Shown here: positions 440-39,871 of the stretch, piece by piece
Numbering within the stretch: the stretch's first letter is position 1
Layout: every line of letters starts with the position of its first letter
Sequence record: NC_041871.1
Source of the DNA: Escherichia phage Murica
Direction: 5' to 3' (one strand)
DNA length: 64,000 nucleotides
Program-made: the position numbers and the translations under genes
The notes under the pieces: model-generated
The model's database searches: none
Seen by the model: only the letters and a program-made list of their open reading frames with translations
What the model was told of the DNA's origin: nothing

Positions 440-994
440 TTACTCCCTGCTGTCAATATCAAAACTCATTGCAATACGGTATGCCTCTTCTAATGGTAAG
501 AGTCTCCCCCACACATCCCAACCGACATCAAGCTGCCTGCCAAACAACTGTTGTGTGGTTCCGTGAGCATGACCGAACAGTTGGACTGATCCGTGAGGCT
601 TTCTGTTCCACTTTGCAAACTGGTAATGGCTCATACAGATCAAATTCTTGTTGTGGCGAAGCTCGTAATAATCTACAACCTCATGACCGAACTCTTTCAT
701 AATTCTGACAGTCGTCCTTGTGTCATGGTTGCCACGAACAAGAATAATATGTCCGTTCAACATATTTAGAATATCTGGAAGTAAGTTGTTGATATTCTTA
801 TCATTAGTGCACGCAATATCTCCCAGGTGGAACACAGTGTCTGCAGGTGACACAACGGAGTTCCACTCGGTGATGATTCCCGCATTCATACTGTCAAGAT
901 TGTGATCATATTGAGATCTGTGTTTTTGACATGAATCAAACTCCATGACCCGCTGGTGGAGAAAGTGCGTATCGCTTGTTACAAAGTATTTCAT
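440..994 (-). CDS. metallophosphoesterase (calcineurin/lambda-phosphatase-like)
   Basis: Ordered motifs SDTHF, HLGDIA, RGNHDT, GHAHG; start placed at in-frame ATG 992-994 (MKYF), a few nt after the kinase stop, instead of ORF-track start 1099. Confidence 0.8.
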   Translation of the reverse strand: MKYFVTSDTHFLHQRVMEFDSCQKHRSQYDHNLDSMNAGIITEWNSVVSPADTVFHLGDIACTNDKNINNLLPDILNMLNGHIILVRGNHDTRTTVRIMKEFGHEVVDYYELRHNKNLICMSHYQFAKWNRKPHGSVQLFGHAHGTTQQLFGRQLDVGWDVWGRLLPLEEAYRIAMSFDIDSRE

Positions 995-1001
995 ACATTC
1001 C

Positions 1002-1412
1002 TCATTTAAGTTTAATGCAGTTTTTAAGCTGGCGTTCCATACGATCCACAACCTTGTCTGGAACATCATGAATGCTTTTATTACCGTGGCGGTTTTCAAC
1101 CACGATTACGGTATAACTATACCCATGACTGATTGCCATGTCAACATATTCCTGCACATGTTTTTCTTTTGTAAACGTATTACTTACCACGATACGGTCG
1201 TATCCCATACGCATCATATCTTCTACGTTATCTTTGCACCATTTTGCTGCGAGTGTTACTTTACTTGCATCCCAGTTGTAATTGCCGTCATCGTCATACC
1301 AAAACATGTCATTCTCAAAATGTGGATACAGACCTTCTAAAGATAGCGCATTTGCCAGTGTTGATTTGCCAGACCCTGGCAGACCACGCACGATATATAG
1401 CATTTTAGACAT
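1002..1412 (-). CDS. P-loop kinase (polynucleotide-kinase-like)
   Basis: Walker A GLPGSGKST near the N-terminus; start ATG 1410-1412 preceded by GGAGG; ORF-track start 1469 lacks an RBS. Confidence 0.65.
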   Translation of the reverse strand: MSKMLYIVRGLPGSGKSTLANALSLEGLYPHFENDMFWYDDDGNYNWDASKVTLAAKWCKDNVEDMMRMGYDRIVVSNTFTKEKHVQEYVDMAISHGYSYTVIVVENRHGNKSIHDVPDKVVDRMERQLKNCIKLK

Positions 1413-1440
1413 AGCAATCCTCCGTTTTAATTTTAATGAT

Positions 1441-1469
1441 AGTATACCTAACTGTTTTGTTAATTTCAA
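1441..1469 (-). promoter_or_regulatory. sigma70-type promoter TTGAAA-17-TATACT for the kinase/phosphatase operon
   Basis: -35 and -10 hexamers with 17-nt spacer read on the minus strand, about 30 nt upstream of the kinase start; divergent from the RNA ligase gene. Confidence 0.55.
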
Positions 1470-1512: not shown

Positions 1513-2448
1513 ATGACAAATGAGGAACGTATGATGAAGTATTTTAATGCAGATGACCTAGTAGACAAAGGTCTTGTAACCAGTCGGTATTATCCAGATC
1601 TTGGATTAAAGATCTATAAATATGCCAGAAAAGTATTCTACAACGATCTGTGGCATTTGTCTCCGCGTTTACTGGAGTGCCGAGGTATTGTTGTTGGCAA
1701 TGAGGGGAATGTTGTGGCATGGCCTTTCACAAAAGTATTCAACTTAGGAGAAAACTCCACCAACCTACCGGACAGTAAACTTGTTACTGCGGTAGAGAAA
1801 AAGAACGGATTCCTCGGTGTGGTATCATCTCATAAAGGTGAACTATTGTTCTCAACAACCGGGTCTCTTGATTCCCCATATTGTAACCTCGCAAAAGAAA
1901 CCATCAGGGAGCAATGTGGTAATTTAGATCTTATCAAGAAGGTTATGGGCAATGAAAACATGACATTCATGTTTGAAATTTGCCACCCTTCAGATCCGCA
2001 TATTGTTCAGGAAGATCATGGCGCATATTTGATAGGTTGCAGATATAATGATTCTGGAATAATGCTACCAGAAGCAGCTTTAGATGGGATTGCCAAATAC
2101 CTTGGTGCAAAACGTCCTCACACTGTGCGTGAAATTCCGTTCAGCTATGCAAAAGAATTAGCTGCAGAAACAAGAGGTGAAGGGTATATGATTCGTAAGC
2201 CTTACTACCCTTATGATCTGCAGCTGAAGATCAAGTCTCCATACTATCTGGCACGGAAGGCAGTAATGAGGGGTAAAGCTTGGAAGATTTGGGATGATGA
2301 TATCTTTAAACGTGTTGACGAAGAGTTTTACGGTATGGTAAAATTTATTCGTAGCAACTATACAGAAGATGTGTGGAATTGCTTATTAGAGCAGGAGCGT
2401 CGTGAGATACTGGACTACTATTTCCACAACGAGGACTATATGCAATGA
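1513..2448 (+). CDS. RNA ligase, Rnl1 (T4 RnlA-like) family
   Basis: Blocks LECRGIVV and KVFNLGEN resemble T4 RnlA as recalled from memory; candidate motif I VEKKNGF (KxNG); alternative start ATG 1531 has a GAGGA RBS. Confidence 0.65.
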   Translation: MTNEERMMKYFNADDLVDKGLVTSRYYPDLGLKIYKYARKVFYNDLWHLSPRLLECRGIVVGNEGNVVAWPFTKVFNLGENSTNLPDSKLVTAVEKKNGFLGVVSSHKGELLFSTTGSLDSPYCNLAKETIREQCGNLDLIKKVMGNENMTFMFEICHPSDPHIVQEDHGAYLIGCRYNDSGIMLPEAALDGIAKYLGAKRPHTVREIPFSYAKELAAETRGEGYMIRKPYYPYDLQLKIKSPYYLARKAVMRGKAWKIWDDDIFKRVDEEFYGMVKFIRSNYTEDVWNCLLEQERREILDYYFHNEDYMQ

Positions 2449-2795
2449 AGAAGTGGATTGTGTGGCTGGATGATTTGAGAGATCCGTCAAATTATGGACT
2501 CCCAGACGCTATTTGGCTGAAGAATTCCTCAGAGTTTATGGATTTTATTAACGATAAGGGAAAGCTCTACAGACGCGTTTCTGAGTGGCATATGGACAAC
2601 GACCTAGGAGAAGTATTCGAAGGATACGATTGCCTATCCATGTTGGAGGAAAAATTTGTATTCGGTAAGCCTCCAGTGATTGACAACGTGAAGATTTTCG
2701 TACATACTTCTAATCCATCGGCAGCTCGTAAATTTATGCTTGCTGCTGACTCATTCAAGAAGTTTGGAATAGAGATTAAACAAAACATCTACTGA
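2445..2795 (+). CDS. hypothetical protein
   Basis: 116-aa ORF overlapping the ligase stop (ATGA); hydrophobic N-terminal strand WIVWLDD; family not identified. Confidence 0.5.
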   Translation: MKKWIVWLDDLRDPSNYGLPDAIWLKNSSEFMDFINDKGKLYRRVSEWHMDNDLGEVFEGYDCLSMLEEKFVFGKPPVIDNVKIFVHTSNPSAARKFMLAADSFKKFGIEIKQNIY

Positions 2796-2803
2796 GGACA
2801 CTT

Positions 2804-3565
2804 ATGCGACGACTGATTATTATCTCCGGTGCTGGTTTGAGCGCTGAATCTGGTATTCCCACTTTCCGATCTGGTAGCACTGCAATGTGGGAGAATTTCA
2901 GCATCGATGAGGTGTGCAACATCCACACCTTTGCCAAGAACTACTATAAGGTGCATGACTTTTACAATGCACGTCGTGTAGCTCTGGGCAGTGTTGATCC
3001 TAACCTTGCACATCTTCGGATCGCTGAGTGGTATTCCCGCTGGTCTGGTCGTGTGATCAACCTTACCACCAATGTAGATGATTTGCTGGAGCGTGCTGGT
3101 GTAAAACATGAAGATATTTTACATGTCCACGGGTATTTGCCTGAAATCACCTACGAAGATGCTGAAGGTAACGATGTAATTAAAAATATCGGATACACGG
3201 AGGTAGATACAGGCAAGTATACCTGGGTTAAGCCTAATGTAGTGTTCTTCGGTGAGGTTGCTCCTAAGTATACAGACATGTATGACCTGTTGACATCTCT
3301 CACAAGCAATGATATGGTGATCCTGGTGGGTTGTTCTAACACAGTTATTAATTTTAACTGGGAATTGTTTCCTGCTACTTGTAAAGGCACAAAACTGCTG
3401 ATTGTAAACAAGTATGACTCGCAGAGTGCAGATGGAAGTGGCATTTCACGTAGCGACCTTTATCAATATGAGGATCGCGGGATCCCTGTATGGTTTAACG
3501 GTGCTGTTGACGCTTTCTCTGATAAAGCATTTATTGAAACTGTAGAAAACTTTATGGAACTTTAA
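2804..3565 (+). CDS. Sir2-family NAD-dependent deacylase/ADP-ribosyltransferase (sirtuin)
   Basis: Sirtuin motifs GAGLSAESGIPTFR, TTNVDDL..HVHG (catalytic His), VFFGE, VGCS, N-x-D; no CxxC zinc module seen. Confidence 0.8.
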   Translation: MRRLIIISGAGLSAESGIPTFRSGSTAMWENFSIDEVCNIHTFAKNYYKVHDFYNARRVALGSVDPNLAHLRIAEWYSRWSGRVINLTTNVDDLLERAGVKHEDILHVHGYLPEITYEDAEGNDVIKNIGYTEVDTGKYTWVKPNVVFFGEVAPKYTDMYDLLTSLTSNDMVILVGCSNTVINFNWELFPATCKGTKLLIVNKYDSQSADGSGISRSDLYQYEDRGIPVWFNGAVDAFSDKAFIETVENFMEL

Positions 3566-3578
3566 AAGGAGACCTTTA

Positions 3579-4292
3579 ATGCTGAATACTAAACTGATCG
3601 ACAACCTGGAAAAACTGTCTCAGCCTGAAAACTACCTTTGGTCTGCCAACTGGGTGGAAAACTGGAACCGTGTGGCAGCTAAAGTGAAAAAATCATACAC
3701 ACCATTCGAATTACAGCTTAGCTTCATTGAGGAAGAGTTCAATGAGGTTTTGGAAGAGCTGGAGAAAGGTGATGGTGGAGATCACCTGTTAAAAGAGGCC
3801 TGCGATCTTCACGTTGTCACAAGTTATGCCGCCTATCTTGTTAATGACAATCACGAAAAGTGGTCAAACCTGTTTGATAATCCACGAGGTCTTAAGTTCA
3901 AGATCGGTGAGTTCTATGATACACTGATCGCTGCGAAAAACACATCCAAGCAAAGAGCGTCAGCTTACCGCTTAGCGGAGTTGTCAACAGCTTTGCTGTT
4001 CCAGCTTCGCGGCGATGTGTGTGGGATGATGCGGAAGGTTCTCAAATCTAATGACAGTAAGTTTGCACGGATCAACCATCTACGGCATTCACACGGTGCC
4101 AGTGCAGATATGCCTGCTGAACAACTCATCGAGTTGGAGATTAAAGATCTTGAGCGTCGTTTTGGTGGTCGCTACGAAGGTTTTGTTGCTAAGGAAGAGT
4201 TCTACAACGGTAATAAAGTTATCATATTCCTTGACAGTAAAGGTAAGATCATGAAGCCTTCGAGCTTCAAGGATGTAACAGAGTATATTTGA
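3579..4292 (+). CDS. MazG-like nucleotide pyrophosphohydrolase domain protein
   Basis: N-terminal EExxE...ExxD pattern (FIEEEFNEVLEEL ... KEACD) typical of MazG/HisE all-alpha NTP pyrophosphatases; C-terminal half unassigned. Confidence 0.45.
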   Translation: MLNTKLIDNLEKLSQPENYLWSANWVENWNRVAAKVKKSYTPFELQLSFIEEEFNEVLEELEKGDGGDHLLKEACDLHVVTSYAAYLVNDNHEKWSNLFDNPRGLKFKIGEFYDTLIAAKNTSKQRASAYRLAELSTALLFQLRGDVCGMMRKVLKSNDSKFARINHLRHSHGASADMPAEQLIELEIKDLERRFGGRYEGFVAKEEFYNGNKVIIFLDSKGKIMKPSSFKDVTEYI

Positions 4293-4298
4293 CAACAT

Positions 4299-4327
4299 AG
4301 CCGGGTAATCCCGGCTTTACTTATTAT
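4299..4327 (+). terminator. intrinsic terminator
   Basis: Hairpin AGCCGGG-taat-CCCGGCT followed by TTTACTTATTAT directly after the 3579-4292 stop. Confidence 0.6.
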
Positions 4328-4354: not shown

Positions 4355-4663
4355 ATGTACAAGCATTCCAGAGATCTTGAAAAAGATGCTGTGTTTGGCG
4401 ACCAGATGAAGGAGCTGATCAAACTTATAGGTAGAATGGAAGATAAGTTTGACACTAAAATCTACATCGATAGCAAGATCTTCAACCACAAAATATGGAC
4501 AAATGTGTGTGTTGGGCTACATGGTGATAAAGATATTGTAAATTTGGTTGTAATAAAGTTCATAGTGTGGCAGAATAAGACTATACGTTATTCCGATCCA
4601 CACTTACTTGTTTATCCTATAAAAGACCTACTACAGAAGGAGGACTGCAATGCCGTTATTTAA
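4355..4663 (+). CDS. hypothetical protein
   Basis: 102-aa ORF in co-directional array. Confidence 0.4.
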   Translation: MYKHSRDLEKDAVFGDQMKELIKLIGRMEDKFDTKIYIDSKIFNHKIWTNVCVGLHGDKDIVNLVVIKFIVWQNKTIRYSDPHLLVYPIKDLLQKEDCNAVI

Positions 4664-4919
4664 TCTTGCTAAACCTGTAGAAGCCCACCAGTTTGACGGA
4701 AGCTCTTCATCAGTATCTGATCTGCAACGGTGGATTGATACAGGTGTGTTTACATCGTCACCTGTTCGGACCAGAGATCTTCGTCGCATGTGTGAGCTTG
4801 TCGAGCCTTTTGGTAACCTTGTCTTGTACCAGGGAGATTGGCTAGTTGACTTTATGGGAGACTGGTTGGTAATGAGTAAAGAAGAGATGTTTAAAATTTT
4901 TAAGGAAGAGGCCGAGTAA
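4650..4919 (+). CDS. hypothetical protein
   Basis: 89-aa ORF; start overlaps the upstream gene end, stop overlaps the ligase start. Confidence 0.4.
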   Translation: MPLFNLAKPVEAHQFDGSSSSVSDLQRWIDTGVFTSSPVRTRDLRRMCELVEPFGNLVLYQGDWLVDFMGDWLVMSKEEMFKIFKEEAE

Positions 4920-6202
4920 TGCATCAAATCAAAACAACACTGTACGCACTGAACAAAGATGGCAGCTACCAACAGTGGAAAGTATTCACTGATGGCGAAA
5001 AGGTTATCGTAGAGTTTGGCAAGCTTGACGGTAAATTGCAGTACAAAGAGACGGTATGCACACCTAAGAACGTAGGTCGTGCCAATGAGACTACAGCTGA
5101 GCAACAGGCCGAGCTTGAGGCTATCAGCAAGTGGGAAAAACAAGTCCGTCTGGGGTATGTTGAAAACATGGAAGATTGCGAGCAGGGTGTTGACCTTTTA
5201 CCCATGCTGGTGCATGACTACCTGAAGCGTGGCAAGGCACTTAAATTACCTTGCTGGATCTTGCGTAAGTTAGATGGCCTTCGTCTGCTTGTTGTTTTCC
5301 AAAATGGTGAGCCTAAATTTATTTCCCGTGGTAATAAGTCCTACCCTATTCAAGGAAAGCTTTTAGAGCAACTTCGTTCTTTCCATTCTACCACTGGGAT
5401 TAAACAACTTGATGGGGAACTATACATTCATGGTCTTCCTTTGCAGAAAATAGTGTCTCTTGCTAAACGGTGGCGCACACAGGAAGAGATTCAGGCCGAG
5501 ATCGATAAAGACTATGAGGCAGATAAAAAACGCCGTCATGCCGCAATTAAGGCAGGCTTATCAACATACAAAAACTTCAACAAGGTAGATATTCCTGTCG
5601 ATGTTGAGCCTGTTCGTGATGATTTGCGTTACGGTGGGTACTGTAGCTACGATCTGGAGTATCACATTTTTGATATTCCTAGCGACAAGGTGTGGTGGGA
5701 TCCAGAAACAGAGTCTGGACGCTGCAAGGATCTTATGGATGCAGAGGATACCGTTACCACTCTGATGCTTGATCATATCAAGGTTGTTGACGCAGAGCTT
5801 GCGTACACAGTTGATCATTGCGAAGAATCTGTTGGTATATTCATGTCCGAAGGATATGAAGGTACTATCATGCGTAATTTCTGCGGTAAATACGAGTACG
5901 GTCAGCGAACATCTGAAGCATTGAAATGGAAAAAGTTCAACGACGCAGAGGTGAAAGTTATTGACGTTGAGAAAGATAAGAATGATGAAGGTGTTCTTAT
6001 CTGTGTTGACAAGGAAGGTGTTGTTGTTAAAATGAAGATGAAAGGCACGCACGAGGAGCGTAGCTATGACAGGATGCAGGAAATGATCGGCAAGTTTGTC
6101 ACCTTCAAATACCAAGCAAGGACAGAAGACAACAACTACCAATTCCCTGTCGGTATCTGCGTCCGAAATGTTAACCCAGACACTTGGGAGGTGCTTGAAT
6201 GA
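4919..6202 (+). CDS. DNA ligase
   Basis: Nucleotidyltransferase motif I KLDGLR with the adenylated Lys near residue 118; motif IV EGYEGTIMR and motif V LKWKK; cofactor not resolved. Confidence 0.8.
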   Translation: MHQIKTTLYALNKDGSYQQWKVFTDGEKVIVEFGKLDGKLQYKETVCTPKNVGRANETTAEQQAELEAISKWEKQVRLGYVENMEDCEQGVDLLPMLVHDYLKRGKALKLPCWILRKLDGLRLLVVFQNGEPKFISRGNKSYPIQGKLLEQLRSFHSTTGIKQLDGELYIHGLPLQKIVSLAKRWRTQEEIQAEIDKDYEADKKRRHAAIKAGLSTYKNFNKVDIPVDVEPVRDDLRYGGYCSYDLEYHIFDIPSDKVWWDPETESGRCKDLMDAEDTVTTLMLDHIKVVDAELAYTVDHCEESVGIFMSEGYEGTIMRNFCGKYEYGQRTSEALKWKKFNDAEVKVIDVEKDKNDEGVLICVDKEGVVVKMKMKGTHEERSYDRMQEMIGKFVTFKYQARTEDNNYQFPVGICVRNVNPDTWEVLE

Positions 6203-7075: not shown

Positions 7076-7540
7076 GTGGAAGACGGACGTTTAATGAAGT
7101 CTGAACGCAGGCTTATTGTGCAACTGATCCCAGAAACAGCTTGGTATAATAACCTCCGAAACGCTGTGAAGAAGAGTGAGTGGGATAAGATCCGTAAGAA
7201 GTGCTACAGAGAAGCCAACTACACTTGCGAGGTGTGCGGAGGTAAAGGCAGCAAACATCCAGTTGAGTGTCATGAACTTTACACTTTCGAAGAAGGAGTG
7301 ATCCGGCTTGTCGGACTGATAGCGTTGTGCCCAGATTGTCACACATCGGTGCATCCTGGGTTAGCAAATATCCGTGGAAAGTATGCTCAGGCAGTTAATC
7401 AGTTGGCTAAGGTGAATAAGATCACCAAGGGTATGGCAGAGGCGTATTACCGAGACTGCTTTGCAGAGTGGCGTGAGCTTAGTAAAGTTCCAGAATGGAA
7501 GACTGACTTTTCGTGGATAGAGGGTTACCTTGATGGCTAA
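7076..7540 (+). CDS. zinc-binding protein, possibly HNH-like
   Basis: CEVCGG...HPVECH...LCPDCH cysteine/histidine cluster. Confidence 0.35.
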   Translation: MEDGRLMKSERRLIVQLIPETAWYNNLRNAVKKSEWDKIRKKCYREANYTCEVCGGKGSKHPVECHELYTFEEGVIRLVGLIALCPDCHTSVHPGLANIRGKYAQAVNQLAKVNKITKGMAEAYYRDCFAEWRELSKVPEWKTDFSWIEGYLDG

Positions 7541-7882: not shown

Positions 7883-8191
7883 ATGCTTAAAATTTTTATT
7901 GTTGAAGATAAAGATATCGTCCAGTTGTATGCAAACGAGAATCACAAAGGTATGATTCTGAAGAAGGCAAAAAACCTTCATGAAAACACAATTCAACCGG
8001 GTGATGTAATTAAGATCTGTGGTTATATGATACCAGACTCCTTGATGAAAATAACCCACCACTGGGGGTCTAATCCGTTCCTTTTTGAAAAGTATTGGGA
8101 TGTTGAGTCACTTATTGCAGAGAGTGATGATGCATTTCATTACAGCATCCAACCATCTTGCAGAATAACTAACAGGAGGGGCTTTGAGTAG
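7883..8191 (+). CDS. hypothetical protein
   Basis: 102-aa ORF downstream of a consensus promoter. Confidence 0.45.
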   Translation: MLKIFIVEDKDIVQLYANENHKGMILKKAKNLHENTIQPGDVIKICGYMIPDSLMKITHHWGSNPFLFEKYWDVESLIAESDDAFHYSIQPSCRITNRRGFE

Positions 8192-9323
8192 AGAATATCC
8201 ACTTATTGAATCTGTAGATTGTCTTGCTGATCTTCTCGAACCTGACGCTATAGTTTATTATGACTTCGACCAGGTTGCATATCAAGCTGCGGCAAGTTGT
8301 GAAAAAAGGACAATTGAGGTAACACACAAAGCCTCCGGACGTAAGAAGATGTTTAAAACACGAACAGAGTTCTGGGGTCGGCAGAAGAACACCGTTGGTG
8401 GTTGGTTAAAAGCTGAGAATACCAACCGTGAAGCCGCATGTAAAAAGTCTGGTAAGGAGTTTATTCCGTGGACACGTGAAGATTTTGATGTCTTGGATAT
8501 ACAAACACCTGACCCTGTAGAGAACTGCTTGCACACAATAAAATGTAAGGCAAATGCAGTTCTTAACTATCTTGGTATTCCGGAAGAGCGATGCGTCGGG
8601 GTGTTGGGAGGCACAGGTAACTTCAGACTAGATCTTCCAATGCCGGAAAGATACAAAGCCAACCGTAACAATACCCTTCGACCACTGCTGCTTGGAGATG
8701 CAAGACAGTATCTCCAAAAGCAGTATAATGCTCAAGTGATCAACGGTATCGAGGCTGACGACTGGTTAGCTATCCAGCAATTTGAAGGTTGGAACCACTA
8801 CCAAAAAACAGGTAAGTTCAACAAGTTTATTATCTCTATTGATAAGGACCAAAGAACACTACCGGGGCTTGTGTTCGATCCTATGCGAAACGATAAGGGA
8901 GATTTTGTAAGGGAAACCCCTATGCTGATCGATAACGGTATGGGGAACATCTTCATGAAGCCTAATGGAGAGGTTGGTGGTTACGGAATGCTGTTCTTCG
9001 GATACCAAATGCTGTGTGGTGACTCTGCTGACAATATCAAGCCGTATCAAGGACTTATCGGTAAAGGTAAGTTCGGGGATGCCTCAGCATTCTACCTGCT
9101 GTCTCAGTGCAGCACTCCAAAAGAGATGTGGGTGGCTATTATTGATCAGTACAAGAAGTGGTTCCCGAAAGGTGTTGTTAAGTATACTGACTTCAATGGT
9201 ATTGATCGTAGAATTTCCGTAGGTCAATGGATGAGTATAATTTTTGACTGTTTGTATATGAAGCGAACATTCAATGATCAAACAAAACTTGTTAACGTTC
9301 TTAGAAATGTTGGAGCAATTTGA
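8184..9323 (+). CDS. flap endonuclease / 5'-3' exonuclease (RNase H-like)
   Basis: Motifs NGIEADDWLA, IISIDKD, LCGDSADNIKPYQGLIGKGK typical of 5'-3' exonuclease/FEN proteins. Confidence 0.8.
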   Translation: MSREYPLIESVDCLADLLEPDAIVYYDFDQVAYQAAASCEKRTIEVTHKASGRKKMFKTRTEFWGRQKNTVGGWLKAENTNREAACKKSGKEFIPWTREDFDVLDIQTPDPVENCLHTIKCKANAVLNYLGIPEERCVGVLGGTGNFRLDLPMPERYKANRNNTLRPLLLGDARQYLQKQYNAQVINGIEADDWLAIQQFEGWNHYQKTGKFNKFIISIDKDQRTLPGLVFDPMRNDKGDFVRETPMLIDNGMGNIFMKPNGEVGGYGMLFFGYQMLCGDSADNIKPYQGLIGKGKFGDASAFYLLSQCSTPKEMWVAIIDQYKKWFPKGVVKYTDFNGIDRRISVGQWMSIIFDCLYMKRTFNDQTKLVNVLRNVGAI

Positions 9324-9646
9324 TGACTAAAAATTCTGTAGATAGTGCAATTATGGAAGCTGTTTTTGAGGATGATCATACAACAGGGACCATTAAAACA
9401 AAAAATACATTTATTGTTGCCACAGGTATGTGGCGGTTGTATGAAGATGACACTATTGCATACATCTTGTATACTGATGATTACGCAGATGATCGTGTAT
9501 GGTCTGCTGTGTTAAAAGAGGATTGTGAGCTGATTGAGGGCGAGCGGCTATGCATGTTTACCAGCGTGGAAACAGACGTTAAGCTTTGCTCTCTTGTGCT
9601 GTTCAAAGACAAAGCTTATTCCCCAGATGAAGAGGAAACAGTATGA
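9320..9646 (+). CDS. hypothetical protein
   Basis: 108-aa acidic ORF overlapping neighbours by 4 nt. Confidence 0.4.
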   Translation: MMTKNSVDSAIMEAVFEDDHTTGTIKTKNTFIVATGMWRLYEDDTIAYILYTDDYADDRVWSAVLKEDCELIEGERLCMFTSVETDVKLCSLVLFKDKAYSPDEEETV

Positions 9647-10272
9647 GAGAAAGACTGCTGTCTATAGATCAGTCTCTTACCCACACAGCCTGCGTTGTAT
9701 GGGACGATGGAAAGCCTGTTCATAAGGTTGTGTTACGAACTCAAAGCTCATCTGCAAAAGAAAAGAAACCAGGGACGGTTTCTTTTGCAACAGCTGCTGA
9801 GCGTATTGACTGGATCTGCAAACAGGTCAGATATTATATCCACACGCACGGAGTTGACACCGTGGTTATGGAAGGGCTTTCCTTTGGATCACGCGGGGAT
9901 GCCACACGTGAACTGGCCGGGTTGTTTTACGGTCTTGAAATTATGCTTTGGGATGCCTTAGCTGATTGTGCAAATGACGGCCTGTTTAAGGTCCACACAG
10001 TGACACCAACAACTGCCAAAAAGTTTGCTCGTAGTCATCTTCCTGAAGAACTTGCTTTTGAGGAGAAGAAAAAGCTTGACAAAAAGACAGGTAAAGAGCA
10101 TACTGTGAAGAAACCTGTTACAATGGATAAAAAGTTGATGGTTAAGGCCTGCGAAGTATCTGAACCTGGGTTCCTAGACGGGATCAATTTGGTACAAGGT
10201 AAGGCCGATCTCGCAGATGCTTATTGGATAGGCAGGGCTCATCTGGAGGGATTATCGCAAAGCGTAAAATAA
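9643..10272 (+). CDS. RuvC-like nuclease (putative Holliday junction resolvase)
   Basis: N-terminal LSIDQSLTHTA, central VVMEGLSFG and C-terminal ADLADAYWIGRAHL fit the RuvC fold pattern. Confidence 0.5.
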   Translation: MRERLLSIDQSLTHTACVVWDDGKPVHKVVLRTQSSSAKEKKPGTVSFATAAERIDWICKQVRYYIHTHGVDTVVMEGLSFGSRGDATRELAGLFYGLEIMLWDALADCANDGLFKVHTVTPTTAKKFARSHLPEELAFEEKKKLDKKTGKEHTVKKPVTMDKKLMVKACEVSEPGFLDGINLVQGKADLADAYWIGRAHLEGLSQSVK

Positions 10273-10829
10273 GAAAGAAAGCTGTCAAAGCCCCAGTTCA
10301 TAACGGGTGGTTAAAAGATTCTAAGGACATAGCCAACTTTCGAAAAGAATTGTCAGAGGAGCAGGATGGTCTTGATCCGATCTTGTGCGAGCCACTTCGT
10401 AAGCCTTGTTTAGATCATGATCATCTGACTGGTCGTTGCAGGGGTGTTTTGTCTCAATGCACTAATACCTTTGAGGGGTATGTGCTTAAATACTGGATGA
10501 AATACTGTAACGAGTATACAGATTGCAGTTTATCAGAGGCGTTGCGCCGGATGGCTGACTATTTGGAGAAAGACTACAGCGACTTCCCACTCCACAAAAA
10601 CTACAGAGATGATATGACAAAGTTCTTGAGGAGATGCTCTAAAGCTACGATTATTGCACGAGCAGAATCAGATCTCAATCTTGTCATTAATCCGGAGTGC
10701 ACCAAGCATGAGGCTATTGAGTTCTACATGCAGGAGTTTATAAAGAAAACTGAGGAGAGAGATTTCTATGGGGATGAAAAAGGTATTCAATCCTTGCGAC
10801 TCAGTCCTGATCAGGATGAAATACCGTAA
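10224..10829 (+). CDS. endonuclease VII-like nuclease
   Basis: CLDHDHLTGRCRGVLSQCTN matches the EndoVII core signature; true start uncertain (overlaps upstream ORF). Confidence 0.6.
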   Translation: MDRQGSSGGIIAKRKIRKKAVKAPVHNGWLKDSKDIANFRKELSEEQDGLDPILCEPLRKPCLDHDHLTGRCRGVLSQCTNTFEGYVLKYWMKYCNEYTDCSLSEALRRMADYLEKDYSDFPLHKNYRDDMTKFLRRCSKATIIARAESDLNLVINPECTKHEAIEFYMQEFIKKTEERDFYGDEKGIQSLRLSPDQDEIP

Positions 10830-10989
10830 CTGGAAAGGTGTTGTTGCAGATCGCTGCGTTACTGAGCCTAATTTATGGTTTGGCTCTACAGAGTATCATA
10901 AAGAAGAGCAGTGGTTGATGCGTGCCTTCGATGTAGACAAGGGCGAATATCGTGACTTCGCTTTAAAAGACATTCTTCAGTTTTACTAA
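10816..10989 (+). CDS. hypothetical protein
   Basis: 57-aa ORF from ATG 10816 overlapping the EndoVII stop. Confidence 0.3.
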   Translation: MKYRNWKGVVADRCVTEPNLWFGSTEYHKEEQWLMRAFDVDKGEYRDFALKDILQFY

Positions 10990-11001
10990 GGAATCTTAAC
11001 G

Positions 11002-11985
11002 ATGATGACAAAGTTAACTCTTGAGCAAATTTTAACACTAAAGCAACAGGGATACACTAATAGACAAATTGCTCGTGAATTTTTAGGCCGTGAGTCACGT
11101 GAGAGCTGGATCCGACTACAGCTTAAACGTGCACAAGATAATATGTCAGAGATTGTAGGAGAAGCAACGGAGCGCTTCCTTGAAGAGCACAAAGGTGCTA
11201 AAGTTTGGGTGTATGATACAGAGACATCCCCAACAAACGGCTGGTTCTTTGGGCACTATAAGACCAACATTCAAACCTGCGGTATTGAAGTTATGCCCTA
11301 TATGCTAACTTTCGCAGGTAAGTGGTTAGACAGCCCTAGTGTGGTTGACTGCGCTCTTCCAGATTACAAAATGTGGGATGAAGATATTCACAATGATCTC
11401 GAATTGATTCAGGATTTGTGGTATTATCTGGATAAATGCGATGTCGCAGTAGCCCACAATTCAGGTTTTGACTGCGGGTGGGCCAACCAACGATTTGCAT
11501 TTCACGGGTTGCCTCCAACAAGCCCTTACAAAGAGGTTGACACCCTTAAAATGATCAAGAAGGCATTCCGTTTGAATGCAAACACTTTGGAGTATGCATG
11601 CAAATACTTCCAACTGGCCCGACAGAAACTGATTGATCACACATTTGAAATGTGGATCAAGTGTGTCCATGGCGATCTTGAGGCATTTAAACAGATGCGA
11701 GAGTATAATGTTGGTGATATCCTGTCTCTGGAAGGACTGTATTTGCTGGCTCGCCCGTTTGCTAAGCAGCACCCAAACATGTCATTGTACTACCAAGACG
11801 AGGAGCCAAAGGTTCGTTGCCCACGCTGTGGTGGAGAACACTTTCACGAGGAAGAAGCTTTGGCATATACTCAGCTGAGTGCATTTAAAACATACCGCTG
11901 TGAAGGTTGTGGATCTGTTGTTCGTGACCGTAACAACATCCGTACCAGAGAAGAAATGAAAAACACCCTGATTCAGATAATCTAA
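11002..11985 (+). CDS. DEDD-family 3'-5' exonuclease with N-terminal HTH and C-terminal zinc ribbon
   Basis: HTH-like LTLKQQGYTNRQIAREF; exo motifs VYDTETSP and AHNSGFD; CPRCGG...CEGCG. Confidence 0.55.
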   Translation: MMTKLTLEQILTLKQQGYTNRQIAREFLGRESRESWIRLQLKRAQDNMSEIVGEATERFLEEHKGAKVWVYDTETSPTNGWFFGHYKTNIQTCGIEVMPYMLTFAGKWLDSPSVVDCALPDYKMWDEDIHNDLELIQDLWYYLDKCDVAVAHNSGFDCGWANQRFAFHGLPPTSPYKEVDTLKMIKKAFRLNANTLEYACKYFQLARQKLIDHTFEMWIKCVHGDLEAFKQMREYNVGDILSLEGLYLLARPFAKQHPNMSLYYQDEEPKVRCPRCGGEHFHEEEALAYTQLSAFKTYRCEGCGSVVRDRNNIRTREEMKNTLIQII

Positions 11986-35922: not shown

Positions 35923-36077
35923 TAGTATAGTGACTAACAAGAGGTGAGGAATGACTGATTTTACTGAAGCTTTAATGATGGCCTTGTCTGTTTTAGCGCT
36001 ATCGGTGTGTTTTGGGGCGTTATTCACATCTCTGGTTAAAGTTTTACATACAGTATTATTACCCAAGGAGCGCAGTA

Positions 36078-36329
36078 ATGACGAAGATTGACTTAAATGC
36101 TGGAGACCATGTTGTTGTCAAATGCATCGGAGATTATCTTGGATTCACAATCGGCAATACTTACGAGGCGGTAGTGGCGAAGGTTTACCATGATAAAGTC
36201 CTCAGTCTTGTATTTGACTGCGATGATGATGGGGATGACCGATACGTCTGTGAGGTGCTGGCACGAGACGATAGTGAAGACCAGAAATTCCTGGTTATTG
36301 AACTGAACGGTATTTTTGTAGAACGTTAA
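36078..36329 (+). CDS. small acidic protein
   Basis: ATG 36078 after AAGGAG; ORF-track start 36012 has no RBS. Confidence 0.4.
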   Translation: MTKIDLNAGDHVVVKCIGDYLGFTIGNTYEAVVAKVYHDKVLSLVFDCDDDGDDRYVCEVLARDDSEDQKFLVIELNGIFVER

Positions 36330-36357
36330 TTTAAAACAACATAAGGAGACTCTTACT

Positions 36358-36663
36358 ATGGCTAAATCTAAAGTTGAACTGTTCACCTCTCTTCCTTCTG
36401 ACACTGCAGAGCGTGATCGCCTTCGCAAAACAATCGAAGAACTGGTAGAACTCCAACTTCAGATTAAAGATCTGAAAGATGCCATTAAGGATATCATTCT
36501 CGTTGAGAAGCAGGATCACCTGTATTCTCCTAAATTCATCAAATCTCTGGTGGCTACCGAGTTCGATATTCGCTATGAGGCTGAAAAACGTCGCGCTAAA
36601 ATCGAAGAAGAGGTTGAGCACATGTCTGAGGCAGACATTCTGTTCAAACGCTCTGTAGAATAA
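36358..36663 (+). CDS. coiled-coil protein
   Basis: 101 aa, charged heptad-like pattern; strong AAGGAGA RBS and terminator immediately downstream. Confidence 0.5.
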   Translation: MAKSKVELFTSLPSDTAERDRLRKTIEELVELQLQIKDLKDAIKDIILVEKQDHLYSPKFIKSLVATEFDIRYEAEKRRAKIEEEVEHMSEADILFKRSVE

Positions 36664-36672
36664 TGACAAAGA

Positions 36673-36697
36673 GAGGGGCTTGGGCCCCTCTTTTTAC
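36673..36697 (+). terminator. intrinsic terminator
   Basis: GAGGGGC-ttgg-GCCCCTC followed by TTTTTACT. Confidence 0.8.
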
Positions 36698-36718
36698 TAT
36701 CTATGAAGGAGATTTGAG

Positions 36719-37045
36719 ATGGGTATACCAATCACTGTAAAAGAATTGAATGAGCGTGATGCAGGCGGTCTATGGCCTGCACGAAAAATCCGCTGCGTCT
36801 ATATGAAAGAGAATCTTGAACATCTTGATCAACAGATCAAGGTCGGTGATATTTTTGAGGTCTTCTATTCCAATCGTCGTAACTGGGAAACCATTCAACC
36901 TTCTGGTTTTGTTCTTGCCAAACTTGACACTGGAGAAGTGATTATCCCTGGGTTGGATATTGTCTTCGAAATTATCCAGGAGTGGGATCCGGATAAGATT
37001 AGATACGAAGAGTTATTCGGTAAAGGTATTATCAAACCTGTGTGA
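36719..37045 (+). CDS. hypothetical protein
   Basis: 108-aa ORF. Confidence 0.4.
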   Translation: MGIPITVKELNERDAGGLWPARKIRCVYMKENLEHLDQQIKVGDIFEVFYSNRRNWETIQPSGFVLAKLDTGEVIIPGLDIVFEIIQEWDPDKIRYEELFGKGIIKPV

Positions 37046-37353
37046 GGTGGATTATGTCTACAAAGGCGGCTAAATACTCCTACATGCCATCAACCTCTGC
37101 AGAGGTAGACTTTAGTTTCGATGTGTTTCCACTGTTTGAGGTGGTTCTGGCATACCCAACAATACTATCTACTCCTGAATCACTTGTACCTGTTAAGTTG
37201 CAGAACGCTATGCATTCTATGCACTACAACAATAAATGTAGGCACAGATGGTGTCAGGACGAGGAAAAAGATTTGGATAGTTTGAGGGATTTTGACAGTC
37301 ACCTTTTGACACCTTTCAGCTACTCCAACCTTGATAAGCCCTCATGGGTATAG
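37042..37353 (+). CDS. hypothetical protein
   Basis: 103-aa ORF with overlapping start. Confidence 0.4.
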   Translation: MRWIMSTKAAKYSYMPSTSAEVDFSFDVFPLFEVVLAYPTILSTPESLVPVKLQNAMHSMHYNNKCRHRWCQDEEKDLDSLRDFDSHLLTPFSYSNLDKPSWV

Positions 37354-37377
37354 CAAAATATCAAATTTAAGACACCT

Positions 37378-37405
37378 AGGACGCTCTGTGGCGTCCTTTT
37401 CTTTA
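37378..37405 (+). terminator. intrinsic terminator
   Basis: AGGACGC-tctgtg-GCGTCCT followed by TTTCTTTATCT. Confidence 0.75.
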
Positions 37406-37566
37406 TCTGGTGCACGATTGCATACCTTGGACAGATAATCTCGTTACAGAGCGTTTAAGAGCTTTCTACAAACAAGTCTCTCTTTCGAGCGTAGCGAGAA
37501 CGCACGTCCGTTTTGACCAAAATCACCATACGCTCGGATTTTAACCAAACCCTCGCGGCGTTGCTG

Positions 37567-37595
37567 TTGACACATTACCGCTCCCGTGATAGTAT
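37567..37595 (+). promoter_or_regulatory. sigma70-type promoter TTGACA-17-TAGTAT
   Basis: Consensus -35 with 17-nt spacer upstream of the small ORF at 37616. Confidence 0.55.
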
Positions 37596-37615
37596 CCACA
37601 CACAGTTTGGAGAAT

Positions 37616-37717
37616 ATGGAATACACAATGAGAACATTGTCTGAAGTTTTAGTGGTGATCCTGATGATCATTACTTCCATAGCGGCTGTTGCCGGAATAC
37701 TCACGGGTGGAACATGA
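37616..37717 (+). CDS. small hydrophobic peptide (about 30 aa)
   Basis: Single TM-like segment LVVILMIITSIAAVAGIL; stop overlaps ATG of ORF 37714; start ambiguous (37616 or 37628). Confidence 0.3.
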   Translation: MEYTMRTLSEVLVVILMIITSIAAVAGILTGGT

Positions 37718-37926
37718 TCAACACACATGCACCTGAAGAGACATCCAAAGGAGTGACCATATGTCCCTTGGCTGAGCCAGTTAGAGAGGAAAACTTAGAT
37801 TCTGAGGACTCTTCATCTTCGTCCCAGACAGATCCTGAGGCTGATGACCTGACGTGGGAGGACATCGTAGATATCTGGTTCTCTATTATGCCTGAGCACG
37901 AAGAGTTCAGAGGTGGTAGACTATGA
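37714..37926 (+). CDS. small acidic protein
   Basis: 70 aa, serine/acidic-rich. Confidence 0.4.
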   Translation: MINTHAPEETSKGVTICPLAEPVREENLDSEDSSSSSQTDPEADDLTWEDIVDIWFSIMPEHEEFRGGRL

Positions 37927-38046
37927 AGCACCGAGCCCACACAGGTTCCTCATGCTAAAGCATGGCCTGAAGAGGCAAACGTGTATAATTCCTGTGCATT
38001 GTGACGTATAAAACCCGTTCACACTCTCATTTCCAGAGGAGATTTT

Positions 38047-38262
38047 ATGAAGATAGAAATATTTGGTGGAGCTGACAACACTCGTGGCCTGATTTACCTG
38101 GAATTCGATGAATCATACCTGCCAGAGGTGTTAAATATAGACTCTGTTGCTGAGGCTTTGGGAGTAAACCCTAAAGAACTCCACTCTTGTGCTGAGATCG
38201 ATGGTTGGGAAGAGACCATGAACATTGATTTCAGTGAAGTAGAGGATGAACCGCTGGACTGA
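38047..38262 (+). CDS. small acidic protein, MKIE paralog family (probable)
   Basis: MKIEIFGGADNTRGLIYLEF; last plus-strand gene before the non-coding gap. Confidence 0.45.
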   Translation: MKIEIFGGADNTRGLIYLEFDESYLPEVLNIDSVAEALGVNPKELHSCAEIDGWEETMNIDFSEVEDEPLD

Positions 38263-39739
38263 CACACAATTAGCTGCCCGGCTAAAGTGCTGGAGCACCT
38301 ACAATACATCTTTCAACTAAATTTCCCACCACCACAATCACTTACCTTCCACACATGACTGTTTGCTTGTTTAGTGAGCAGTCATGCCTTGACATTCTTG
38401 CCTATCCTGATAAAATTAAGTTCTTCTCTTTTCTTTTACCGAGTAATTCGGGTTTTCTGTTCTCTTCGGTTTGAAGGGGTATGGAGATACACCTGAGTGA
38501 ACATGGTGAACAACCGAACATTTGGCTATGGCATTAGCATGGCGAAGCGGACGGGTGACGAAAGAGGGGCCGGAGGACACCAGTCACTGCCATATGATAT
38601 ATGGGTGATAACCTGAAGAGTCTGAATAAGTGTTTAAGTACCAGTCAGAGGAAAAGGTGAATGGTAGCCGAAGGGGGAGGGGGGTTTCTTGTATCTTTAA
38701 TTTGTATATTATGTATACACTCGTAAACCAATCTCATCTGAATCTGTTTACCACACAAAGTAGATAGGGACAAATATCACCTATTAAACTTGAATTATTT
38801 ATAGAAAATACCACAACACCACTTAAGTCTTTGATTTTACACACAAATCCTACAGATATTCAACCTCTATATTTAACATATTCATAACATATTCCATACT
38901 CTACCTGTCTGATCAATTTACCCAACCACATCCTCCATATTTTCCCTGTCTGTACCACCCCTGCCCCGCCGGGAGTCCCGTCATATCTGGCTTTCCAGCA
39001 AATATCACACCCACAAATATCATTGCCTGAAGAGGGTTTCATCCCATAGTACATGCCTTACCTGAAGAGCGCTTCATACACCACGTAAATTTTTTAATTT
39101 ACCCCCCCTCCCCGCCGCCGGAGTGGTCGGCTTTTCCCACACAGGCCTGAAGAGTCAGCCAGAAATATCTGAACAGGTCCAGTTATACCACGATTTTGAC
39201 CTGACCGACAGGAGTGCTGCCAGGCGGACGGAATGGGAATACTTCTCATTCTTATAATAATTCTCAAATATCGAGGCAGTGAGGCAAATTAATAGGTGAG
39301 GCCGTTCACACAGTGGCACAACATTTGCAATCTATTTTGTGAGGGTGAATGAGAATACCTATCATTGTGAGAACTGTTATCATTACGGGCAATTTAACAT
39401 AATACCCATTATGCGCACCACTGGCGATCCATACAGGGATTGATAACATGAGTTACAGTTTACGCATATAACAATCATATTTCTTACTATTTGTGTGGGA
39501 TATAGTTAGCAGCCGATAGATTAGATATTGACCTGTGGACTTCCAACCGTCTAGACGTCTAAACGCCCACACAACAAGGATTATACATACATTACTGAAT
39601 GTAAACAGGGCCGCAAAAATGCTACCATACCAGATTGTAAATTTTTCATGCAGCACTTGACAAAGAGGAGAAAAACTTGTCTGACACAATATGACATACT
39701 GGGCACATTAAACACACTTTAGACTTAATTGACATGCCT

Positions 39740-39862
39740 GACTGTTTACGCTGTCACTATTCACGCTATTACTATTCACTCCCTTTACTGTTCACGCTCT
39801 TACTGTTTACATGCTTAATGGTTTACATGACCAATAGTTTACATAGCTAACTATTTACATGG
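39740..39862. repeat. array of eight tandem 15-17-bp iterons
   Basis: Head-to-tail units ending TT(T/C)AC(G/A/T) with 15-16-bp period (e.g. ctgtcactattcacg, ctattactattcact, ctcttactgtttacatg, ccaatagtttacatag). Confidence 0.75.
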
Positions 39863-39871
39863 AAATGATAA

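Follow-up and report, generated by a model that had tools for sequence, protein, structure and literature searches.

The stretch of DNA analysed here (the window, 64,000 nucleotides of Escherichia phage Murica, NC_041871.1) encodes a sirtuin, which raises the question of what such an enzyme does in a phage and with which partners. The genome is that of a Vequintavirus, an rV5-like E. coli myophage, and the window is 99.7% identical to vB_EcoM-Pr121LW. An initial annotation, made from the sequence alone, had placed the sirtuin in a trio of open reading frames on the plus strand (2445–2795, 2804–3565 and 3579–4292). These coordinates are exact and the genes are real: they belong to conserved families, and 118 of 119 matching phage records are at least 90% identical over this stretch. 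The trio had also been taken as a possible unit of its own, a view that has to be given up, since it forms the distal part of a cluster of six genes, all located between positions 440 and 4292:

440..1099, minus strand: calcineurin-like metallophosphoesterase (Pfam, PHROG and PDB matches)
1002..1469, minus strand: P-loop (AAA_33) nucleotide/polynucleotide kinase (Pfam AAA_33 and PHROG matches)
1513..2448, plus strand: RNA ligase of the T4 Rnl1 family, 311 aa, opening the plus-strand unit
2445..2795, plus strand: stand-alone cREC domain protein, 116 aa, beginning MKKWIVWLDD (PF20274)
2804..3565, plus strand: CobB/SIRT5-like sirtuin devoid of zinc ligands, 253 aa (profile, PDB, fold and conservation)
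3579..4292, plus strand: MazG/HisE/dimeric-dUTPase-like protein, 237 aa (conserved motif, PHROG and family Pfam matches)
4299..4326, plus strand: hairpin of terminator type, AGCCGGG-taat-CCCGGCT, followed by a T-rich stretch and located 7 nt past the stop of the MazG-like gene

The four plus-strand genes are tightly packed in an operon-like manner. The start of the cREC gene overlaps the stop of the Rnl1-like ligase gene in an ATGA, the following gaps are of 8 nt and then 13 nt (between the sirtuin and MazG-like genes), and a strong Shine-Dalgarno sequence, GAGGA or AAGGAG, precedes each ORF of the trio. The kinase and phosphoesterase genes adjoin this unit and are divergently transcribed. The hairpin at 4299..4326 likely closes the Rnl1-cREC-sirtuin-MazG transcription unit; position and stem strength are what back it, because the total of terminator-like sites in the region, 4 versus 3.8 expected from shuffled sequences, shows no excess. 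No tRNA genes were found in the window. In the near-identical genome of JES2013, about 3 kb separate the phosphoesterase gene from phage tRNA genes lying beyond it.

A neighbourhood of this type is already known. Iyer, Burroughs, Anantharaman and Aravind (2022, Viruses 14:1977, section 3.7.3; PMC9503650) described one “prototyped by Escherichia phage V5”, with a configuration 2 assigned to ‘Escherichia phage V5 and Proteus phage Mydo’. Its members are a T4-like RNA ligase, cREC, a nucleotide kinase, a sirtuin and MazG, with an ‘occasional’ calcineurin-like phosphoesterase (PMC9503650). Every listed component is present in the window, and nothing essential differs; genes of this kind have also long been annotated as Sir2 and pyrophosphohydrolase. 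The neighbourhood is predicted to mend RNAs cut by host defences, the sirtuin having a predicted Tpt1/KptA-like role in RNA repair (PMC9503650). A search of the available literature for experimental work on phage sirtuins, on cREC or on RNA repair in Vequintavirinae returned comparative genomics only. Our leading explanation, held tentatively and at slightly less than an even chance, is that the trio represents the last three genes of this rV5-type ‘NAD+-utilising RNA repair’ neighbourhood and acts in RNA repair.

The 253-aa protein is a sirtuin with NAD-binding and catalytic motifs, as initially annotated. It matches Pfam SIR2 (PF02146; E 6.9e-28, 98.2 bits, cutoff 24 bits) and E. coli CobB (1s5p; E 3e-21, some 26–27% identity). 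Its AF2 model (pLDDT 89.5) contains the Rossmann domain and the small-domain fold, and the best Foldseek matches of this model were CobB (E 1.8e-18, TM about 0.75/0.83–0.84), Af1-Sir2 and SIRT5. Across 52 homologues, residues G9-A10-G11, S16, F21-R22, N90, D92 and H109-G110 are invariant. H109 aligns with H147 of CobB, and the other NAD-binding and catalytic residues also match their CobB equivalents, so that by residue conservation the enzyme looks catalytically intact. The absence of a zinc module, noted at first, is true of the ligands but not of the fold: the window protein has no Cys or His in residues 110–146 and a four-ligand Cys/His site is found there in 0 of 52 family members, but a small three-stranded beta-ribbon is still modelled over this segment, which is about as long as in CobB.

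Three other assignments were considered for this protein. It is not a cobB orthologue, as some GenBank records name it, because it scores far below the NCBIfam CobB equivalog cutoffs (NF040867, 104 versus 320 bits; NF001753, 122.6 versus 243 bits). Nor is it a defence-type SIR2 NADase such as ThsA, DSR or SIR2-HerA: SIR2_2 gave E 0.097 and 13.2 bits against a cutoff of 24.5 bits, the protein is a single domain of 253 aa, and deacylase-type sirtuins make up all of its listed fold neighbours. The profile and structure comparison proposed at the outset thus returned a ‘true’ sirtuin of the CobB/SIRT5 type, and not the NADase type. Finally, it is not a KptA/Tpt1 homologue of the ART superfamily, being a sirtuin by both sequence and fold; any Tpt1-like role is therefore a matter of analogy and not of family membership.

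With CobB, Af1-Sir2 and SIRT5 as its nearest relatives in sequence and structure, the protein could be a conventional NAD+-dependent lysine deacylase, taking acetyl or succinyl groups off proteins as CobB and SIRT5 do. Its task during infection would be to reset the acylation state of phage or host proteins, and its RNA-repair neighbours would reflect inherited synteny of an early region. The protein keeps everything that ordinary lysine deacylation requires: GAGxS, FR, TxNxD, the catalytic His, the FGE substrate loop (F148, F149, E151) and the class-III Y-x-x-R acyl-carboxylate pocket are common to the phage protein, E. coli CobB and human SIRT5, as is the fold, and the catalytic His, NAD-binding residues, loop and pocket are invariant. 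For the pocket these are Y54 and R57, which correspond to CobB Y92/R95 via the alignment offset and are found in all 52 homologues. What distinguishes the phage sirtuin from CobB and SIRT5 is the loss, throughout the family, of the zinc-binding cysteines of the substrate-side module, and its location among RNA end-healing genes, an arrangement seen in two unrelated phage groups. Moreover, what a phage would gain is not evident, as E. coli has a CobB of its own, and the CobB equivalog scores given above do not plead for a deacylase either. The charge of the family points the other way: with a median pI of 5.1 and a net charge of about −12, unusual for an RNA-binding enzyme, it suits basic protein substrates better than RNA and makes direct RNA binding less likely. 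In phi92-like phages, moreover, the sirtuin is not part of the repair cluster, and in 23 of 64 loci it has no recognised partner. On balance, we judge a conventional deacylase unlikely, if by no means negligible. The anion-binding Y54/R57 pocket, as read from the alignment, would fit phosphate and succinyl groups alike. The acidic character of the clade, and its loss of zinc ligands with YxxR nevertheless kept, add to the published description of the rV5-type neighbourhood.

The upstream neighbour, previously left unassigned, is a cREC protein, a name that stands for a cyclic-phosphate-processing receiver-like domain. It matches Pfam PF20274 (cREC_REC; E 2e-14, 54.5 bits, cutoff 27 bits), and the precomputed match to this family is present in 55 of 55 homologues. 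In a set of 29 homologues D51, D53, L54, G55, H87, S89, N90, P91 and K96 are invariant, and D9, D10, N52 and T88 are found in 90% or more. The protein has the acidic active site of a receiver-like domain (DD, D, T/S, K), and no kinase-sensor gene lies beside it. A profile search of 1.84 billion proteins gave 1369 representative clusters, mostly stand-alone proteins of 100–120 aa. The cREC-Nudix fusions reported in the literature were not reproduced in the sample inspected, in which the 10 longest proteins among the best 150 matches contained no second Pfam domain, and a PDB sequence search gave chance-level matches only. Cyclic-phosphate phosphodiesterase activity is predicted for cREC (PMC9503650, PMC7824862), for reasons set out in PMC7824862.

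Three further neighbours are of the kind expected around cut RNA ends in the proposed repair route. The ligase matches Pfam RNA_lig_T4_1 (9.3e-15, 55.5 bits, cutoff 28.3 bits) and PHROG 562 (1.2e-65), as well as TIGR02308 at 1.5e-9, under its equivalog cutoff. The kinase has a Walker A motif (GLPGSGKST) and matches Pfam AAA_33 (1.7e-10), PHROG 2071 (1.8e-58) and PHROG 505, polynucleotide kinase (7.6e-10). It adjoins Rnl1 in all variants of the cluster and, judged on these matches, is a candidate 5'-OH RNA kinase; in a RefSeq relative it starts at 1412 (136 aa). PDB sequence searches with the kinase and the ligase gave no match. For the phosphoesterase, matches were found to Pfam Metallophos_2 (2.8e-6) and Metallophos (1.1e-5), PHROG 547, phosphoesterase (1.9e-52), PDB 1xm7 (4.7e-11) and, weakly, to a PdeM-like protein (2.5e-4). 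Its longest ORF is 219 aa long, and the RefSeq relative begins at ATG 994 (184 aa). It is co-located with cREC in relatives, and is a candidate end-healing enzyme for 2',3'-cyclic phosphate or 3'-phosphate.

In the RNA-repair explanation that we favour, the kinase would phosphorylate the 5'-OH of a cleaved RNA, the cyclic phosphate would be opened by cREC, the phosphoesterase or both, and the break would be sealed by the Rnl1-like ligase. The sirtuin would then remove the residual 2'-phosphate with NAD+, by a Tpt1/KptA-like ADP-ribosyl transfer releasing nicotinamide and ADP-ribose 1'',2''-cyclic phosphate. The latter could be degraded by cREC, the phosphoesterase or the MazG-like enzyme. We infer all these enzymatic steps, as well as the RNA substrate. 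Tpt1 and sirtuin chemistry are analogous: both involve attack of a nucleophilic oxygen on C1'' of NAD+, with departure of nicotinamide, and both pass through a 1'',2''-cyclic intermediate. Carried to its end, the analogy would make the zinc-less, YxxR-retaining sirtuin a non-homologous counterpart of Tpt1/KptA that uses NAD+ to strip the 2'-phosphate at Rnl1-sealed tRNA junctions, with cREC as a cyclic phosphodiesterase that would create this 2'-phosphate, open ADP-ribose 1'',2''-cyclic phosphate, or both. We regard this specific form as doubtful. A 2'-phosphotransferase would be redundant if the phosphoesterase clears the cyclic phosphate completely, which was counted against RNA repair.

The same proposed logic is met in the fungal and plant pathway of Trl1 (CPDase-kinase-ligase) and Tpt1, where CPDase-like, 5'-kinase and Rnl1-family ligase activities are combined with an NAD+ consumer. 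The CPDase is a 2H enzyme there, whereas in the phage cluster it would be cREC, and Tpt1/KptA has no sequence or fold kinship with the phage sirtuin. In T4, tRNA repair by Pnkp and Rnl1 counters the anticodon nuclease PrrC. The set in the window likewise comprises a phage 5'-kinase and an Rnl1-family ligase, together with a phosphoesterase for the healing of 3' ends, and the reversal of host tRNA cleavage is its presumed aim. However, kinase and phosphatase are separate proteins in the window phage, the phosphatase is calcineurin-like and not HAD, and the sirtuin, cREC and MazG-like partners are all lacking in T4.

Gene neighbourhoods were compared over 64 IMG/VR loci of the sirtuin clade. The sirtuin is embedded among phosphoesterase, Rnl1 and kinase genes, with or without cREC, in 11–13 of the 64, and these loci display at least four gene orders (Vequintavirus, Mydovirus-like, L069 and L071/73/80); the full rV5-type gene set was found in the Vequintavirus and Mydovirus-like loci. 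In 28 T5-like loci, a gene identified by Pfam as HAD_SAK_2, a ‘Swiss-army-knife’ RNA-repair phosphatase, lies 0.8–1.3 kb downstream. No recognised partner was found in 23 loci. Of the near-complete contigs that carry a close cREC, 14 of 14 also have this sirtuin clade. This recurrent genomic association, with its several gene orders and the HAD_SAK_2 partner in T5-like phages, supports a link of the sirtuin to RNA end-healing genes. In phi92-like and related phages of 141–153 kb, however, the sirtuin lies 31–35 kb from the cREC-phosphoesterase-Rnl1-kinase cluster, which is therefore without adjacent sirtuin there, a separation not included in the published rV5-type description. Furthermore, part of the ‘conservation’ of the cluster is inherited synteny, because most of the lineages bearing it are related myophages of 137–153 kb.

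Genes of NAD metabolism were also encountered around these loci. NAMPT is directly upstream of the sirtuin in one locus (L088), a NAMPT and Prs pair stands beside the cluster in sister lineages, and cREC adjoins NadE in a jumbo phage; neither NAMPT nor Prs was found in the window. Pfam searches on the neighbours of distant cREC loci (L022–L029) and of sirtuin loci of unknown context revealed little apart from NadE, AAA_33, NAMPT, Prs and DNA ligase. In ECO340P2, a gene resembling an Acb2/Tad1-hairpin sponge is located about 4 kb from the sirtuin.

The NAD-salvage genes and the sponge-like gene are compatible with another role, in which the cluster acts on NAD+ or on nucleotide second messengers and blunts host immunity. 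The sirtuin would be a NADase, or an ADP-ribosyltransferase acting on a host target, and cREC and the MazG-like protein would degrade cyclic or ADPR-derived immune signals. cREC is indeed predicted to open cyclic phosphates, ADPR derivatives included (PMC9503650, PMC7824862), and some sirtuins have ADP-ribosyltransferase activity (PMC9503650). However, the sirtuin is not of the defence NADase type, none of the adjacent genes encodes a Macro protein or another usual companion of ADP-ribosylating sirtuins, depletion of NAD+ would hurt the replication of the phage itself, and such a role does not account for the close association with RNA ligase and kinase genes. We consider this improbable. The counter-defence role initially suggested for the trio is plausible as such, but not in the form proposed: instead of NAD depletion or destruction of immune nucleotides, the genes of the cluster point to the healing and sealing of cleaved RNA.

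The third gene of the trio fits least well with the others. Its product, initially called MazG-like, belongs to the all-alpha NTP pyrophosphohydrolase superfamily, which reportedly, after Moroz and colleagues in 2005, comprises dimeric dUTPases, MazG and HisE. In 13 homologues E51-E52-E53, E56, E59 and D76 are invariant and E73 is found in 90% or more, which gives the EExxE...ExxD metal-binding motif of the superfamily. The window protein matches PHROG 671 (1.5e-21) and scores 13.7 bits with Pfam PRA-PH, under the cutoff of 21.3 bits; over the family, PRA-PH matches 13 of 13 members (best 4.8e-6) and MazG 11 of 13 (best 7.6e-5). PDB sequence searches, with the single sequence or a 13-sequence profile, gave no match, and identity to dimeric dUTPases is at most 14%. 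The helical bundle of the superfamily was found in a structure model of moderate quality (pLDDT 74, 1 of 5 models good). A C-terminal beta-hairpin extension, with the invariant motif GKIMKPSSF, sets the phage protein apart from dimeric dUTPases, MazG and HisE.

In relatives, the MazG-like gene adjoins a DNA ligase gene whether or not the sirtuin is nearby, another addition to the rV5-type description that makes its membership in a sirtuin ‘unit’ weak. In one relative (L005), it stays with the DNA ligase together with the phosphoesterase, and the RNA ligase, cREC, kinase and sirtuin genes were not found within about 7 kb on either side. It is quite conceivable, although we lean slightly against it, that this protein is a nucleotide-pool enzyme of the DNA ligase and replication genes, either dimeric-dUTPase-like or a house-cleaning NTP pyrophosphatase, co-transcribed with the sirtuin only by position, in Vequintavirus. 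This concerns the third gene only. It has to be reconciled with the 13 nt spacing and with a hairpin placed only after the MazG-like gene, and the moderate quality of the structure model also counts against it. MazG is a recurrent member of the neighbourhood according to Iyer et al. (PMC9503650). A pyrophosphatase could also stand in for the Nudix protein of the jumbo-phage variant, cleaving ADPR derivatives.

For RNA repair by the cluster as a whole, the domain identities, the packing, the gene orders, the intact sirtuin residues, the NAD genes in relatives, the tRNA genes of JES2013 and the published reading for phage V5 were counted in favour. The acidic sirtuin family, the conserved deacylation features, the separation in phi92-like phages, the inherited synteny and the L005 locus were counted against.

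The value of these results lies in a sharper, testable hypothesis and not in a discovery. If the prediction of RNA repair is right, rV5-like and T5-like phages carry a sirtuin-centred, NAD+-dependent route of RNA repair, sirtuin chemistry extends from acyl-lysine to RNA phosphate, cREC gains a first function, and the tolerance of these phages to tRNA-cleaving defences would be explained. If the sirtuin were in addition a true analogue of Tpt1/KptA, action on an RNA phosphate would have been shown for a sirtuin for the first time, the cREC family would receive its first assigned activity, and the fungal and plant style of tRNA repair, ‘heal, seal, then dephosphorylate’, would have been built in phages from unrelated parts.

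The 1,848-bp stretch that carries the three genes matched 119 phage records, nearly all of them Vequintavirus (rV5-like) E. coli myophages, with at least 90% identity in 118 of the 119 and a top match in Escherichia phage vB_EcoM-Pr121LW (99.7%). Three ORFs lie exactly where the initial annotation placed them, each preceded by a ribosome-binding site (GAGGA or AAGGAG), in the following surroundings:

440–994, minus strand: calcineurin-like phosphoesterase, divergent from the Rnl1 unit
Also divergent from the Rnl1 unit: AAA_33 P-loop kinase (PHROG "polynucleotide kinase", 7.6e-10)
1513–2448, plus strand: T4 Rnl1-family RNA ligase, directly upstream of cREC, its stop overlapping the cREC start (ATGA)
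2445–2795, plus strand: cREC gene
2804–3565, plus strand: sirtuin gene, 8 nt after cREC
3579–4292, plus strand: MazG-like gene, 13 nt after the sirtuin gene
7 nt after the MazG-like stop: GC-rich hairpin with a T-rich tail

Annotation of this feature already exists: the middle gene is Sir2 or "cobB" in GenBank records, and the third is "nucleotide pyrophosphohydrolase" in RefSeq. The neighbourhood is also in the literature, having been described earlier in phage V5 by Iyer et al. (PMC9503650). Eighteen "Campylobacter phage" records (MG0656xx; those listed are unannotated) share about 97.5% identity with 2445–4292, and C. jejuni is the stated host in 16 of them; mislabelling or contamination may account for these genomes.

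Heal-and-seal RNA repair pathways consist of a kinase, a phosphoesterase and an RNA ligase, and the cluster is probably an RNA-repair module. In JES2013, a near-identical annotated phage genome, four tRNA genes are found about 3 kb past the phosphoesterase gene. The name in wide use for the Rnl1-like gene, "RNA ligase and tail attachment protein", is misleading and goes back to T4 gp63. A separate observation, which also covers window positions 4919–6202 and 8184–9323 (both plus strand), concerns the phosphoesterase. It weakly matches PdeM, a "ligase-associated DNA damage response" phosphoesterase (2.5e-4), and is grouped with the DNA ligase, the MazG-like gene and an exonuclease in the 14.7-kb locus of relative L005, where no RNA-repair gene was found; it may serve DNA, not RNA, metabolism. 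Further along the window, an HNH-endonuclease-like ORF (7076–7540, so annotated in JES2013) sits between the endolysin and 5'-3' exonuclease genes, accompanied by small ORFs annotated "transposase", and may be a homing-endonuclease insertion. GC skew switches from plus to minus near 37–38 kb (window about 36000–40000), which fits the JES2013 annotation, where genes pass from the plus to the minus strand.

The gene upstream of the sirtuin, which the initial annotation had left unassigned, matches Pfam PF20274, "cyclic-phosphate processing receiver domain" (cREC; E 2e-14). Among 29 homologues, D51, D53, L54, G55, H87, S89, N90, P91 and K96 are invariant, and D9, D10, N52 and T88 are kept in at least 90%. 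Together these residues form the catalytic set of a receiver domain, here in a protein that stands alone. Searched with a profile, 1.84 billion representative proteins yielded 1,369 clusters, almost all of stand-alone proteins of 100–120 aa. What the family does is so far only predicted, and the cREC rationale is set out in PMC7824862. In a 204-kb jumbo-phage contig (L026), cREC (9998–10450; PF20274, 3.2e-24) is followed directly by NAD synthase (NadE, 10501–11250).

That the 253-aa protein is a sirtuin was borne out by the Pfam SIR2 profile (E 6.9e-28), by its nearest solved relatives (E. coli CobB, E 3e-21; SIRT5; archaeal Sir2), and by an AF2 model from a 52-sequence alignment (pLDDT 89.5), whose Foldseek neighbours were CobB (TM 0.75/0.84), Af1-Sir2 and SIRT5. 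The reported lack of a zinc module held in part: no family member has a four-ligand zinc site in residues 110–146, but the three-stranded ribbon is kept, in a segment about as long as that of CobB. Invariant in the alignment are G9-A10-G11, S16, F21-R22, N90, D92, H109-G110 and the FGE loop, as well as Y54 and R57. The latter two align with CobB Y92 and R95 at an offset of 39, which also places H109 on CobB H147, and so correspond to the class-III pocket that takes acyl groups with a negative charge. The family is strongly acidic (median pI 5.1, net charge −12). A CobB orthologue was ruled out (104–123 bits versus cutoffs of 243–320). One homologue, P0054 of Klebsiella phage vB_Kpn_3, is misleadingly deposited as "tail assembly protein".

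ORFs of 24 cREC loci and 64 sirtuin loci sampled from IMG/VR were searched with profiles built here for cREC, sirtuin and MazG-like proteins, and by phmmer with single window or locus proteins for phosphoesterase, kinase, Rnl1, DNA ligase and HAD. In 11–13 of the 64 loci the sirtuin is embedded in a phosphoesterase/Rnl1/kinase cluster, which may or may not include cREC, and the genes of such clusters are arranged in at least four ways:

Vequintavirus: phosphoesterase, kinase / divergent / Rnl1-cREC-SIR2-MazG..ligase
Mydovirus-like: phosphoesterase..Rnl1-cREC-kinase-SIR2-DNA ligase..MazG
Locus L069: its own order, sirtuin within the cluster
Loci L071/73/80: sirtuin in a cluster without cREC

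Another 28 loci, T5-like, have a HAD_SAK_2 "Swiss-army-knife" RNA-repair phosphatase (by Pfam identity) 0.8–1.3 kb downstream, and in 23 no partner was recognised. The sirtuin clade is also present on each of the 14 near-complete contigs that have a close cREC; in six of these (phi92-like and related 141–153 kb phages) the sirtuin is 31–35 kb from the cREC-phosphoesterase-Rnl1-kinase cluster. The link between sirtuin and RNA end-healing genes is thus real, and it turns up in two unrelated phage groups, but the sirtuin is an optional, movable addition. Much of the conservation among 137–153 kb phages may be inherited synteny. In Escherichia phage ECO340P2, where the sirtuin has no RNA-repair neighbours, a match to the Acb2/Tad1-hairpin Pfam family, an anti-CBASS/Thoeris sponge-like fold, is found at 1940–2215 of the locus, about 4 kb upstream.

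The MazG-like call stood, and the protein belongs to the all-alpha NTP pyrophosphohydrolase superfamily. Alone it gave a sub-threshold Pfam match (PRA-PH, E 0.085) and no PDB relative by sequence search; across its 13-member family, PRA-PH matched 13 and MazG 11. PHROG 671 "nucleotide pyrophosphohydrolase" matched at 1.5e-21. The metal-binding-type EExxE...ExxD motif is kept (E51-E53, E56, E59 and D76 invariant, E73 nearly so). The gene lies 0.2–1.7 kb from an ATP-dependent DNA ligase in every lineage, including L013–L021, where the locus itself is without the sirtuin, and L005, in which the roughly 7 kb on each side showed no Rnl1, cREC, kinase or sirtuin. This linkage, the nearest folds (dimeric dUTPases) and the lack of an annotated dUTPase in that part of JES2013 devoted to replication and nucleotide metabolism, which encodes ThyX and RNRs, make a nucleotide-pool role unconnected with the sirtuin a serious alternative. 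Between the MazG-like and DNA ligase genes are two small overlapping ORFs of no known function (4355–4663 and 4650–4919; PHROG 7684 and 14585), both kept, at different positions, in the Mydovirus-like locus and in L005.

NAD genes accompany several relatives. A 120-kb viral contig (L088) has NAMPT (8057–9493) directly upstream of the sirtuin (9959–10705), a pairing that would recycle the sirtuin's nicotinamide product. A NAD-salvage pair, NAMPT and PRPP synthetase (Prs), occurs in relatives that include Mydovirus-like and phi92-like phages (L008–L012, L015–L021, L071, L073, L080 and L090). It lies 3–7 kb from the repair cluster, on the opposite strand wherever that cluster was itself mapped; tblastn found neither gene in window 1–64000 or the Vequintavirus loci. 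This neighbourhood fits a NAD-consuming pathway but does not single out one model. NAD depletion or signal degradation, as the initial annotation envisaged for a counter-defence unit, is the least supported reading and quite improbable; a defence-type SIR2 was ruled out (SIR2_2 at only E 0.097). The coordinates of that annotation were accurate, its details partly so, and its interpretation is partly supported.

A Tpt1-like role for the sirtuin has in its favour the genomic context among RNA end-healing genes, NAD chemistry that has stayed intact, an anion-binding YxxR pocket and a chemical parallel: in sirtuins and Tpt1 alike, an oxygen nucleophile displaces nicotinamide, and the route passes through a 1'',2''-cyclic species. 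Against it stand the acidic surface, redundancy with a phosphoesterase able to remove cyclic phosphate outright, and the full conservation of deacylase features. We consider this role doubtful; its main rival, an ordinary protein deacylase, is also unlikely. In the proposal of Iyer et al., the sirtuin would act like KptA/Tpt1 and strip 2'-phosphates, and the associated phosphoesterases would have one of two tasks, to open the cyclic phosphate or to process ADP-ribose cyclic phosphate (PMC9503650). The composite explanation, an RNA-repair neighbourhood that includes a Tpt1-like sirtuin, may well hold, if short of probable. No experimental test of the sirtuin and cREC repair proposals was found in the searchable literature.
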